From: Microcoleus sp.
GTDB lineage: Bacteria > Cyanobacteriota > Cyanobacteriia > Cyanobacteriales > Microcoleaceae
Direction of reading: 5' to 3'
DNA: 64,000 bases
Assembly: GCA_042408215.1 (NCBI GenBank)
Contig: JAYFMW010000017.1
Span: forward strand, 576,001-640,000
In this document: positions 420 through 49,228 of the stretch, in pieces
Layout: each line of letters starts with the position of its first letter
Numbering within the stretch: position 1 is the stretch's first letter
The notes under the pieces: generated by a model
What the model was told of the DNA's origin: nothing
Seen by the model: the letters and a program-made list of their open reading frames with translations, nothing else
The model's database searches: none
Made by a program: the position numbers and the translations under genes

Positions 420-663
420 GTCCTCCCTTACGGGGTAATGTTTGCTTCGTCAATGTTTAAGGTCGGTAACTATATTAAAAGCACTGGCTTAACCCTTACA
501 CCTGTTTAACTTTTAATTTCTAGAGCAGAAAACTAGCACGCATTTTCTGGTAGGTACTTTAACGCTTACCTTAAACGTAGTGGGCGAACCACTGAGACTG
601 GTCAACTTGGCGAATTTCTTGCCCCCACTAGATCGGTACTCCGATTAGTGGTGGGTGGTTGAC
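420..663 (-). ncRNA. IscB omegaRNA (HEARO-like) scaffold, copy 1
   Basis: Starts GTCAACCACCC, lies directly upstream of iscB ATG; near-identical to 1287-1530. Confidence 0.8.
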
Positions 664-1286: not shown

Positions 1287-1530
1287 GTCAACCACCCACC
1301 ACTAATCGGAGTACCGATCTAGTGGGGGCAAGAAATTCGCCAAGTTGACCAGTCTGAGTGGTTCGCCCACTACGTTTAAGGTAAGCGTTAAAGTACCTAC
1401 CAGAAAATGCGTGCTAGTTTTCTGCTCTAGAAATTAAAAGTTAAACAGGTGTAAGGGTTAAGCCAGTGCTTTTAATATAGTTACCGACCTTAAACATTGA
1501 CGAAGCAAACATTACCCCGTAAGGGAGGAC
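1287..1530 (+). ncRNA. IscB omegaRNA scaffold, copy 2
   Basis: GTCAAC...GTTGACCAG pairing, CTACGTT and AACATTGACGAAG motifs typical of HEARO/omegaRNA, immediately 5' of iscB. Confidence 0.8.
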
Positions 1531-44816: not shown

Positions 44817-45198
44817 GGGTTTGGGGAATGCTGGGGAGTTTTCTCTATTTTGACAAATTACTTTGTACTTTGCCTCCAGGGCGATTCCCTACGGGATAGC
44901 TTCGCTCGCGCGGACTTTTTGTGGCGATCGCGCCCTAGATTTTAGAGGCTTTGTGTAATATTAGGGAGACAAAAATTAACTAACAGCCGAGAAGTCCCTC
45001 GGTATATTTAGAGGGGAGATATCGGAGCGCTTGCGCTCAGTACCCCGAATAAATTACCGCAGGGATGAAAGGCGCGTCGGTCATCGCCCCCGGAGCCCGA
45101 CAATTAGACTTCGGGAGTACCTTAATTTTTGATGTACGTTCTAAATATTGTAGTAGGAAAATGGTATATTAAAGTAGGTCGAAAAAAGGAAGCTTCCA

Positions 45199-46599
45199 AT
45201 GCAACTGACATATAAATACCGCCTCAAACCCACAAAAGCCCAACTAATAACCATCGCAACCCACCTAGAACTCTGTCCTAGGCAGTACAACTATCGACTG
45301 GGTGAAAGATTTAGATGGTGGAAATCAACAAGAACGCCTATTAACGCCTGTCCTTTAACTGCTTCTATAGTTCCTGTCGAGGAAATCTATCAAAACATTC
45401 CCTTGCTCAGAACGCAAACTAGGAATGGCAAAAAAAAGATGATTCAGGCAATCCTTTAACTAGGAAAGGTGATATTTTCTCAAATATTGAAGGTGGTTAT
45501 GTGCAATGGCAAACCATACAGTTAGCCGACCTGAATAAAACTAAAAAGCTATTTCCTGAATACAAACTCTTGGATTCCCAGGTTTTACAAGATGTAGTTA
45601 ACAGAGTAGAAACTTCCTTTTCAAACTTTACTACACCTGACAAAAACGGGAATCGTAGAGGTAAACCCAAGTTCAAAGGTTTTCACTACTACAATTTTTT
45701 TACTTATCCTCAATTAGATAATTTAGATATTATCAAGGATGTGCCAAACAGGATTTGTATTGACCTTGCAAAAATAGGTCAAGTGCCGAGGGTTTTCCAT
45801 CGCCCAATACCGACAGGATTTAAGGTTAAGACGGGAACAGTTATCAGAGAAGCAGATAGGTGGCATATCTCCCTAACGCTAGAAGATAAAACAGTTCCCA
45901 TAACGGTTGCAGAAATTCAACCGACCTCAGAAAACAGTCTCGGTATTGATTTGGGAATCACCAATTATGTCTATATGTCCAATGGTGAAAGAATTGAAAA
46001 CCCTAGATTCTTGAGGAAGTCTGCTGAGAAATTAGCAAGACTTCAAGCGAAACTAGCTAAAAGAGATAGGGGTTCTAAACGTTGGCAGATTATTAAAGGC
46101 AAGATTTCTAAGCTTCACCAGTTTCTAGCCAGAGCGAGAGTTGATTTTCAGTTTAAAACGGCACAGGAGCTATTTGGCAAGTGTGATGTTTTGATTGTTG
46201 AAGATTTGAGTATCAAGAATCTAACCAGACGTGCCAAGGTCAAGACCGACATTGAGAATGGCAACTTAGTTTATTTGCCAAATGGTCAAGCGGCTAAGAG
46301 TGGCTTGAATAAATCAATGCTTGATGCTGATAATGGTCAATTCGCTACTGTTCTCAAATACGTTGCTTGGAAGTTAGGAAAGAGCGTTTTATTTGTTGAC
46401 CCCAAGGGGACTTCTCAACACTGTTGGAATTGCCTCAATAAAGTACCGAAAGAGTTATCGGAGCGATGGCATTCTTGTCAATGTGGGGAGTCCTTAGATA
46501 GAGATGAAAATTCAGCCAAACTTATAAAGAAGATTGGTCTAAATTACGAAAGTGGCGAGGGAACTTCGTCACTCAAAAAAGCCCTTGCAAAAAGGGAAA
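45199..46599 (+). pseudogene. tnpB: TnpB (frameshift at A8 run 45430-45437; last codons lie after the intron, 49079-49110)
   Basis: MQLTYKYRLKPT HTH, RuvC GIDLG / VEDL / DRDENSA, Zn finger CWNC..CQC. Confidence 0.85.
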
Positions 46600-49078
46600 G
46601 TGCGATTCGTTTAACCTAAAGTAAACTGAAAAGCTTTACGAGACGGTTAGCCCAGTTGATGAGACTGGTGATAACTGATTACATTTGTAGGTGAGACTCC
46701 GTGAGTCAAGTCCTACCCTCCAAGTGCAGGAGTGAAAGCATAGCCCCTAGTATACTGGGTAGCAACCATTAGGCTAAAGCGGGGTTAAAAGGTAGAACTA
46801 CTAGAAGCTGAATCTGGTAACTATCGAGCCAGAGTCCATGCGTAGCGAAAGCAGTGATGTATCTGAACCATCGTAATTTGCAATGGTGTAATAGCTGAAT
46901 CAGGATAAATCCGTTGAGAAACACGGTAAAGACTGATTAACACGCCCGCCAAAAGGCAAGGATAGGGCATAAGCGGTTTTTCCTCCGACTTATAAGCACC
47001 GCCCAAAAAACCCGGTGGATAGCATCGCGCTAAAGACTTAATCAATATGTAATCGGAACGAAGTAACTCTCTTAAATCTCTGGATAGGTCGATATTCAGT
47101 AAGTAGCTAACGAATGATGTAAGGGAGAGGGATTGTATCAAAAGCGAATGCCTCACTGTAATGGTGTGGATATGCTGACAGGTACACGGTAATTCCAATG
47201 GAGTAGAACAAGTAGCAATGAATATATCTAAAACGCTGAACAATCAGACGGTGGAGTGGAAAGACATCAAATGGCGAAAGTTAGAAAAGGTGGCTTTTAA
47301 GTTGCAAAAGCGCATATTCCAAGCGAGTGAACGTGGTGATGTTAAAGCAGTTCGCAAACTTCAGAAGACCCTGATTAGGTCTTGGTCTGCAAAATGTATT
47401 GCGGTGCGTAGGGTAACACAAGATAACCAAGGCAAAAATACGGCTGGTGTGGATGGCGTGAAATCCCTGACACAAAAGCAACGTACTAACCTTGTTGGTA
47501 AGTTAAAGTTGGAAGGCAAGGCAAAACCCACTCGTAGGGTTAATATTCCTAAACCTGGAACAACCGAAACTAGACCACTAGGAATCCCTACAATAAGCGA
47601 CCGCGCATTGCAGGCGCTATGTAAGATGGCGTTAGAACCAGAGTGGGAGGCAAAGTTTGAACCTAACTCTTATGGTTTTAGACCAGGGCGTTCCTGTCAC
47701 GATGCGATTGTGGCAATTCATACCAATATCAACCAAAAAGCCAAATATGTGCTGGATGCTGATATTGCTAAATGCTTTGATCGTATAGACCATAAAGTAT
47801 TACTCTCCAAAATATATACATACCCCACTCTAAGCCGTCAACTTAAGACATGGCTCAAAGCAGGGTACTGTGTGCAGGGTGAATTATTCCCTACTAATGA
47901 AGGTACACCACAGGGCGGGGTTATTTCTCCGCTACTGGCAAATATTGCCTTACACGGTATGGAAGAAAGAGTTAAACAGTATGCAGAAACCCTGATAATG
48001 CTCTCTCCTGGTGGATTCAAACTAAACAAAAACCAGAGAAAAGACACACTCAGCTTAATCCGCTACCCTGATGACTTCGCGATCATCATCCATGAGGATT
48101 TAAGCGTAGTCAAGAAATGTCAGGAGATAATTGCAGAATGGTTATGTGATATGGGATTGGAATTAAAACCAAGTAAGACAAAATTAACCCACACCCTCAT
48201 TGAGATTGATGGTAATGTTGGGTTTGAGTTCTTAGGATTCCATGTACAGCAGCATGAAGTAGGAAACTACCGTAGTGCCAATACATCACAGGGAACACCA
48301 CTAGGTTTTAAAACACTAATCACACCCTCAAATGCCAAGGTTAAAACCCATCTAGCCAAGATTGCTGAAGTAATAGATTCCCACAAAACCGCCCCACAAG
48401 CTGCTTTAATCAGCAAACTGAATCCAATAATCAGGGGATGGTCAAACTATTATTCAACACAGGTAAGCAAGGATACCTTCTCAAAGGTTGATATGCTGAC
48501 ATGGCAAAAGTTAAGAGCCTGGGCAAGAAAGAGAGGGGAAGGGGACATCAATAAAGACAAATACTGGCGAACAGTAGGCGATAGAAATTGGTGTTTCAGT
48601 ACCGAGGATGGATTAGAACTACTCACCCATGCAAGTACGCCAATCGTAAGGCATATCAAGGTCAAGGGAGAGGCTAGTCCGTTTAATGGAGACTGGGTTT
48701 ACTGGAATAAGCGAAGAGGCGAAAGCCCGGATACCCCAAGCAGAGTATCAAAATTAATCAAGAAACAAAAGGGTATCTGTTCTCACTGCGGTTTGTATTT
48801 TACCAGTACAGACATTGTAGAAGTTGACCATATTAAACCGACCTCGTTAGGTGGAAAAGACACCTATGACAACCTACAACTTTTGCATAAACACTGCCAC
48901 GACACAAAGACAGCAACAGACGGGTCAATGCGCTCCGAAGGAAGTGTTAAAACCTGATAGTTGGTCTTGAATCGTACCTATAACAAAGATGGAATTATCA
49001 AGGAGCGGAATGATGCGAAAGTATCACGTTCCGTTCTGAAGGAGAGGTAGGAGTGGTAACGCTCCTATCGACTCTAAC
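46600..49078 (+). mobile_element. Group II intron (IIB/chloroplast-like class)
   Basis: 5' GTGCG at 46600; domain V GAGCGGAATGATGCGAAAGTATCACGTTCCGTTC (49003-49036); domain VI ending ...CTCTAAC at 49078. Confidence 0.93.
47218..48957 (+). CDS. ltrA: Group II intron reverse transcriptase/maturase with HNH endonuclease domain
   Basis: TAGVDG, RPLGIPT..DRA.Q, SYGFRPGRS.HDA, GTPQGGVISPLLAN, YPDD, NPIIRGW.NYY, EVDHIKP..LGG..NLQLLH..CH. Confidence 0.95.
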   Translation: MNISKTLNNQTVEWKDIKWRKLEKVAFKLQKRIFQASERGDVKAVRKLQKTLIRSWSAKCIAVRRVTQDNQGKNTAGVDGVKSLTQKQRTNLVGKLKLEGKAKPTRRVNIPKPGTTETRPLGIPTISDRALQALCKMALEPEWEAKFEPNSYGFRPGRSCHDAIVAIHTNINQKAKYVLDADIAKCFDRIDHKVLLSKIYTYPTLSRQLKTWLKAGYCVQGELFPTNEGTPQGGVISPLLANIALHGMEERVKQYAETLIMLSPGGFKLNKNQRKDTLSLIRYPDDFAIIIHEDLSVVKKCQEIIAEWLCDMGLELKPSKTKLTHTLIEIDGNVGFEFLGFHVQQHEVGNYRSANTSQGTPLGFKTLITPSNAKVKTHLAKIAEVIDSHKTAPQAALISKLNPIIRGWSNYYSTQVSKDTFSKVDMLTWQKLRAWARKRGEGDINKDKYWRTVGDRNWCFSTEDGLELLTHASTPIVRHIKVKGEASPFNGDWVYWNKRRGESPDTPSRVSKLIKKQKGICSHCGLYFTSTDIVEVDHIKPTSLGGKDTYDNLQLLHKHCHDTKTATDGSMRSEGSVKT

Positions 49079-49228
49079 AAGAAGCCTGCGGTCTAACGGT
49101 ACGACCTTGACCGCCAGGTTCGTTCACGGATATTGGTGATGACAACGACTGTGAATCAAGCCAACTCCGAGTCAAGTGCAAAAATAGTTGTGGGTGCTAT
49201 GTTGGGGTGTAGGCTGTTGAGAACAAAC

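Follow-up and report, generated by a model that had tools for sequence, protein, structure and literature searches.

What becomes of a guide RNA when a group II intron lies within its scaffold? The question is raised by a 64,000-nt stretch of Microcoleus sp. DNA (contig JAYFMW010000017.1, positions 576,001 to 640,000 of the forward strand; hereafter the window, its genome being G000), in which such an intron splits a tnpB gene close to its 3' end. The gene forms an insertion sequence (IS) of the IS200/IS605 family, whose right end carries the scaffold of the omegaRNA that would guide TnpB. The intron inside this scaffold is a real and probably intact feature. We favour, at a probability of about 0.65, the reading that the intron hides in the ends of a multicopy IS and that a splicing-dependent guide RNA is a by-product.

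The feature is a group II intron of subgroup IIB, with the GUGCG start, domains V and VI and AY end of this class (Table 1). Its reverse transcriptase (RT)-bearing intron-encoded protein (IEP) scores 327 bits against TIGR04416 (cut-off 300), and the nearest solved structure is 6me0_C. The limits given by an earlier, sequence-only reading of this DNA, GTGCG at 46600 and CTCTAAC ending at 49078, were upheld: removal of the intron in silico restored the TnpB C-terminus and left an element collinear with intron-less sisters of the same genome, namely C16 (intact, 477 aa), C20 (partial) and C29 (ends only). Such sisters had been proposed as a check, and were found. Exon-binding sites (EBS) of the intron and the intron-binding sites (IBS) of the exon are listed with the other features.

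Table 1. Features of the interrupted tnpB element, in order of position in the window.
Feature	Position	Strand	Evidence or remark
TTAA target tetranucleotide, probable target-adjacent motif, abutting the left end externally	44976..44979	+	sister left ends; empty-site joint
tnpB-only IS200/IS605-family element (IS1341-like layout), intron included	44980..49127	+	4148 bp; C16/C29 alignment
tnpB exon 1: helix-turn-helix, RuvC D/E/D, zinc finger	45199..46599	+	PF12323, PF01385, PF07282, NF040570
omegaRNA stem-loop 1	46551..46573	+	loop GAAC (46561-46564) is a pseudoknot half, in exon 1
omegaRNA stem-loop 2	46582..46596	+	loop is IBS2; 3' strand overlaps IBS1 (46594-46599); helix 3 shows compensatory changes
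Group IIB intron	46600..49078	+	2479 nt; GTGCG start, CTCTAAC end at 49078
EBS2a (A46875)	46875	+	pairs T46586 (IBS2a, exon -14)
EBS2	46877..46881	+	5 bp with exon -9..-13 (IBS2, 46587-46591)
EBS1, in 8-nt loop	46979..46984	+	pairs exon -1..-6 (IBS1, 46594-46599)
EBS3 (T)	47020..47020	+	pairs A49079 (exon +1)
RT/maturase/HNH protein (IEP), 579 aa	47218..48957	+	RVT_N, RVT_1, GIIM and HNH domains
Intron domains V-VI	49001..49078	+	Rfam RF00029 (Intron_gpII), 61 bits
Exon 2: final tnpB codons	49079..49127	+	stop 49108-49110; element end 49127
omegaRNA stem-loop 3 / right-end hairpin	49085..49118	+	exon 2
Pseudoknot partner GTTC	49122..49125	+	exon 2
Flank-derived guide of the window copy	49128..49143	+	sisters diverge exactly at 49128

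The scaffold was delimited by comparison. This IS end is held by 60 of 144 family genomes, and 30 distinct intron-less ends were aligned. The alignment supports three stem-loops and a pseudoknot of loop 1 with the last bases of the element: 97.6% of the cells are paired, against 30-51% in slid controls, and 7 pairs show two-sided changes, a result that none of 500 shuffles reached. Compensatory changes occur in the stems. The four pseudoknot pairs do not vary among the 30 ends and thus give no covariation signal, and in three other IS families the corresponding loop and 3' end form a different complementary pair (by eye). The insertion point falls in the linker that joins stem-loop 2 to stem-loop 3, at a distance of 49 nt from the right end. 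Stem-loops 1 and 2 with the pseudoknot loop are left in exon 1, and stem-loop 3, the pseudoknot partner and the guide, to which established TnpB biology assigns 16 nt, in exon 2. Since the pseudoknot halves lie in separate exons, an omegaRNA made in cis with the guide of this copy would need splicing, as the sequence-only reading had proposed. The position of the insertion fits that proposal; no spliced product was seen in the contigs of the RNA run X14 described below.

The intron would be irrelevant to the omegaRNA if a working molecule began 3' of the insertion or came in trans. Exon 2 alone does fold a hairpin (z -2.2), and intron-less sisters exist. We nevertheless consider such an origin very improbable, since stem-loops 1 and 2 and the invariant pseudoknot loop lie upstream of the intron and the 49 nt of exon 2 retain one stem-loop of three, and since the sisters, as sources in trans, carry different guides. 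In the accessible text of two reports, three stem-loops with a pseudoknot are universal in omegaRNAs (PMC10690162) and a processed omegaRNA measures 126 nt (PMC10278001). A separate idea, that the intron acts as a brake on self-targeting, was rejected: the guide has an 11-nt match after a TTAA on C3, and 22% of the TTAA sites of the genome have such a match.

The match between intron and site was examined over related introns. The 144 genomes were searched with the 5' 618 nt of the intron and 126 matched; about four candidates per genome were scored, 236 further matches standing outside this set. Among the 111 loci examined, 1 was without the 5' end and 7 were without a clear GTGCG, and the covariation set of 81 distinct sites is what was left once 12 rows that were duplicated or truncated had been taken out, together with short exons and repeated sites. 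EBS1 and its target form 56-66 Watson-Crick pairs per position, compared with about 20-25 expected, which confirms the register in which the TTTCCT loop at 46979-46984 had been paired with the exon (five Watson-Crick pairs and one G-U in the window). The EBS2 pairing also exists, with 5 bp (46877-46881 with 46587-46591) rather than the 7 first drawn. Exon position -14 (T46586) and A46875 covary in 57 of the 81 sites; the available text of one study describes this EBS2a-IBS2a pair in RT-bearing IIB1 and IIB2 introns and as needed for mobility (PMC8643678). For EBS3, 29 of 34 pairings are Watson-Crick against 12 expected. All four pairings, EBS1, EBS2, EBS2a and EBS3, are satisfied at the window site, in keeping with the earlier view that the intron fits it, and this match argues for arrival by retrohoming and not by stray insertion. 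Class IIC introns, which home to hairpins, lack EBS2 and insert just past a stem-loop; the intron of the window is not of this class, its EBS2 and EBS2a covarying with the target.

The same pairings touch the scaffold itself. Stem-loop 2 has IBS2 as its loop and shares bases of its 3' strand with IBS1, so folding of the scaffold could compete with splicing; the predicted energies are -6.7 kcal/mol for the stem-loop 2 hairpin, -4.6 for EBS1/IBS1 and -2.8 for EBS2/IBS2. This exact overlap, with half of IBS1 in the 3' strand, speaks for a reading in which intron and element work together as one functional unit: splicing would assemble the omegaRNA, in competition with scaffold folding or the binding of TnpB. 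We find such a unit unlikely, for reasons that emerge from the sequencing runs and from the relatives.

Four of 23 listed public sequencing runs were examined: X1, X6, X11 and X14. X14 is RNA, two are guessed to be DNA and one is of unrecorded kind; X1 is near-identical to the window and possibly its source, and is not counted as independent, and X6 and X11 come from two other studies. The assembled sequence shows two defects, a tnpB frameshift within a stretch of A residues near 45430 and YPDD as the RT motif. All three non-RNA runs have one more A at 45429, and all four runs have a G at 48067, which gives YADD. Both defects are therefore probably assembly errors and the element is probably intact; a candidate explanation in which the two had killed it was dropped, as both are missing from the runs. 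Counting these two, the assembly departs from X1 and from two further runs at four positions (45429, 45695, 46166 and 48067), and it may contain consensus errors that give rise to false pseudogenes.

The 3' junction with the same flank was bridged in X1, X6 and X11, and the 5' junction in X11 and X14, X1 and X6 reaching 30 letters there, one below the threshold. The divergence of X6 and X11 from the window is about 1% for tnpB and 1.5% for the intron. Occupation of the same locus at this divergence in other studies points to an arrangement that has persisted, and its retention across three studies speaks for a functional unit. In X14 a contig about 91% identical spans the same 5' junction in a different IS allele, and the RNA library holds a contig that crosses this junction unspliced. 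The spliced joint 46599->49079 was not seen among the contigs of X14, the sole RNA run examined, which cannot show its absence; the finding counts against the functional unit. Where this joint occurs in X1, X6 and X11, it is DNA of intron-less sisters and not a product of splicing.

Among codons private to the window's tnpB, 16 are non-synonymous (one shared with the reads having been removed) and 9 synonymous, compared with 106 and 140 in 13 pooled sisters (Fisher p=0.057), and two of the changes fall in a conserved helix at 46329-46334. The ratio disfavours a functional unit. With the unspliced RNA contig, this hint of relaxed selection would fit an effective knockout, in which weak splicing or decay of the precursor leaves no useful guide and the intron parasitises the element and silences its homing nuclease. 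That outcome is in our view quite unlikely: all pairings, domains V-VI and, from the reads, YADD are intact, and group II introns, 17 of them in the available text of the report, splice in vivo in Trichodesmium (PMC4143802).

Relatives of the intron lie in housekeeping genes, intergenic DNA, other introns and other mobile genes, and their EBS covary with these targets. A Pfam scan of the junction frames covered 54 of 79 stretches, and most stayed unnamed. Insertions in housekeeping genes (L117 at G130:C70, L158 at G095:C103, L016 and L137) were in those for the ribonucleotide reductase small chain, a DNA polymerase III clamp loader, 6-phosphogluconolactonase and uroporphyrinogen decarboxylase. 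Only 4 of about 80 distinct near-lineage sites are in scaffolds; the expectation that other copies would sit in tnpB right ends thus failed for the wider lineage, most being in unrelated targets, and the lineage is not omegaRNA-specific. In the window's genome the other two ORF-bearing (open reading frame-bearing) close relatives, an 84%-identical copy on C30 and a 5'-truncated copy on C6, lie near the N-termini of other tnpB genes.

Insertions in scaffolds were nevertheless recurrent, at six positions in all and with at least four separate origins. G101 and G085 both carry the intron in the stem-loop 3 loop of the window's IS family, 25 nt short of the element end and with EBS2 matching, and in G085 at least two different flanks were found. 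In G074 it is 24 nt from the end of another IS family, again in the stem-loop 3 loop, with the tnpB frame open. G126 holds three insertions, each 61 nt from the IS end. In G039 and G090 the intron is of a more distant type, inserted about 71 nt and 79 nt before the end, respectively; in G090 the assembly covers its 3' side only. A ribozyme tree (7 duplicate or truncated rows omitted; bootstrap not fully settled, 0.980) needs 4 changes for the four near-lineage scaffold sites, which 0% of bootstrap trees group, and a single clade of introns specialised on omegaRNA was accordingly rejected. The differing positions, in place of one conserved design, and the many intron-less sisters disfavour the functional unit. 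Insertions occur in the coding part of the window's IS family as well, in G052 and at two further junctions in X14. Two introns show twintron-like nesting: the scaffold intron L080 (G101:C47) is interrupted by another group II start within its RT ORF, and L007 (G039:C406) lies within domain VI of another intron.

Searches with the junction and related patterns gave counts that are not statistical where the reversed-pattern control was frequent, as it was in one of the two pattern scans. There were 47 pattern matches, including 11 scaffold insertions, about 17 intron ends at other targets (by eye) and, for the rest, non-introns. The window's junction, with up to 3 mismatches, had three matches in the 144 genomes; the window alone matches exactly, and the two others part from it where the intron begins. 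A GTDB scan gave 2 matches, neither with an intron end (by eye), and the JGI metagenomes none. Near-identical records may be missing from these collections, so this is no proof of absence, and public reads did show the site elsewhere.

In the complete genome G126, all three copies found of the IS carry the intron, with different flanks and YADD, and tnpB is open in each (412 codons to the junction). The IS bodies differ at 4-33 of 1384 nt (up to 2.4%) and the introns at 0-3 of 2444; one body differs from the others at 29-33 nt, its intron again at no more than 3. Near-identical introns in diverged bodies indicate homing into IS copies that had already separated. The three occupied, open copies also speak for a functional unit, and homing implies splicing out of a scaffold context, which disfavours a knockout. 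Homing among multicopy IS ends, part of the sequence-only reading, is thus seen in the relatives G126 and G085; in the window's genome, C16 satisfies all pairings and yet is empty. The pairings are satisfied in 14 of the 30 sister ends, and most sister copies are without the intron; the uninvaded C16 is a point in favour of the knockout.

We propose that a mobile cyanobacterial group IIB intron altered its EBS so as to recognise the conserved 3' end of a multicopy tnpB element, and then retrohomed into it. The lineage would retarget freely and often hit tnpB elements because these are repeated, transcribed and cheap to disrupt, and the scaffold, as their most conserved part, would offer many landing sites. 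The tnpB-intron precursor would have to be spliced before this copy could fold a working omegaRNA, which probably lowers guide output, as a by-product and not an evolved switch. The proposal builds on the match to the site, the position within the scaffold, the repeated independent scaffold insertions and homing among the IS copies of a relative; nothing shows that the dependence on splicing is evolved control.

Several observations weigh against hiding as the whole explanation. The empty C16 is unexpected for an actively homing intron, so that homing in this genome is incomplete or slow; together with the possibly relaxed selection on the window's tnpB it also counts against function. The tnpB frames are open in G126 and G074. 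Scaffold sites are also commoner than random, which could mean selection beyond hiding: excluding the seed they make up 3 of 79 sites, compared with 0.27-0.42% of G000 (p about 0.001-0.005, kin not being independent), and p rises to 0.03-0.08 with a threefold safety factor.

The host element has the marks of IS200/IS605 elements: a fixed tetranucleotide 5' of the left end (TTAA in 10 of 10 rows listed, 7 of 7 distinct copies), a subterminal right-end hairpin and no target duplication. The catalytic residues of TnpB (RuvC D/E/D) could be aligned, and the empty-site joint 44979->49128 was present in X14. No ORF for tnpA was found within the element, including 44980-45198. Elsewhere in G000, 19 of 20 matches to PF01797 (TnpA) exceed the cut-off. 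TnpA of IS608 and ISDra2 needs the right-end DNA hairpin. The window site leaves this hairpin whole, so that hitch-hiking is possible and a trans-acting TnpA could still move the 4.1-kb composite. Insertions in stem-loop 3 (G101, G085, G074) split it, which splicing cannot mend, and in this respect they favour the knockout. The unspliced frame merely replaces the last few residues of TnpB, outside the profile match, and the protein could therefore be produced without splicing. Promoter and terminator scans were at chance (11 vs 7.9 and 4 vs 3.8). The load of such elements in G000 is very high, with about 155 tnpB 3' ends and 3% of the genome matching the TnpB profile.

Group II introns within mobile elements have precedents, RmInt1 reportedly residing in ISRm2011-2. 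The accessible text of published work describes a preference of group II introns for transposase genes and other mobile DNA (PMC7306698), and F4 introns of Thermosynechococcus elongatus at a conserved site in ISEL1, an IS200-family element (PMC2882425); the latter text mentions neither TnpB nor a guide RNA, whereas the window site is inside the omegaRNA scaffold. What sets the target apart from those of group II introns in mobile DNA is that it is a structured non-coding RNA on which an RNA-guided nuclease depends. As in the TnpB-omegaRNA systems outlined in the available part of PMC10278001, the tnpB 3' end overlaps a three-stem-loop, pseudoknotted scaffold followed by a guide from the flank, but here 2479 nt interrupt the scaffold. 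Our literature search, with supplements and subscription papers outside its coverage, turned up no account of a TnpB omegaRNA interrupted by a group II intron.

A further parallel is with IStrons, in which, according to the available text of two studies (PMC10690162, PMC13565253), intron splicing and omegaRNA biogenesis likewise share one transcript. IStrons are described there as group I introns that enclose a whole IS, their ends being the IS ends, and their splicing severs scaffold from guide; the window instead holds a group II retro-element internal to the IS, whose splicing would join the scaffold. One could imagine a working composite in which TnpA moves the element, spliced omegaRNA with TnpB brings it back where it has been excised, and the intron, carried as a passenger, homes into sisters, folding and TnpB giving a feedback inverse to that of IStrons; we hold this to be unlikely to the same degree as the functional unit above. 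If splicing is confirmed, the locus would be a natural case of a CRISPR-like guide RNA made by intron splicing, with a logic opposite to that of IStrons; if splicing is weak, it would be a clear case of one mobile element disabling the RNA-guided nuclease of another. Whether introns silence, tolerate or exploit TnpB homing can be asked here with natural controls, namely the intron-less sister in the same genome and G126 with all three copies found interrupted. The insertions also point to places in the scaffold where a splice junction may be tolerated, information of use in building genome editors gated by splicing.

Other introns in these genomes showed placements of their own. G000 contains five near-identical ORF-less IIB introns (C30:136.6 kb, C6:102.9/417.8/739.0 kb and C20:318.8 kb), each lying where a small repeated element ends and with EBS1 and EBS2 matching; a related repeat interrupts the C20 copy of tnpB. 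A IIB clade (L135, L143, L146, L148-L155, L161-L167, L171-L179 and neighbours) inserts 11-14 nt downstream of TAnnnT, a -10-box-like motif, in 17 of 26 rows compared with 5 of 56 others (Fisher 2e-7, with kin not independent and the motif chosen post hoc). The clade may be a group II lineage that homes to promoters, landing immediately downstream of transcription starts; a literature search found nothing on it. IscB elements are hit as well: in L010 (G085:C5) the intron is in the first codons of iscB, after the HEARO RNA (the IscB omegaRNA), and in L182 (G100:C35) an intron stub follows a HEARO-like start by about 26 nt (by eye; no Rfam match). The window itself carries two divergent, near-identical HEARO matches, at 435-663 (-) and 1287-1515 (+).

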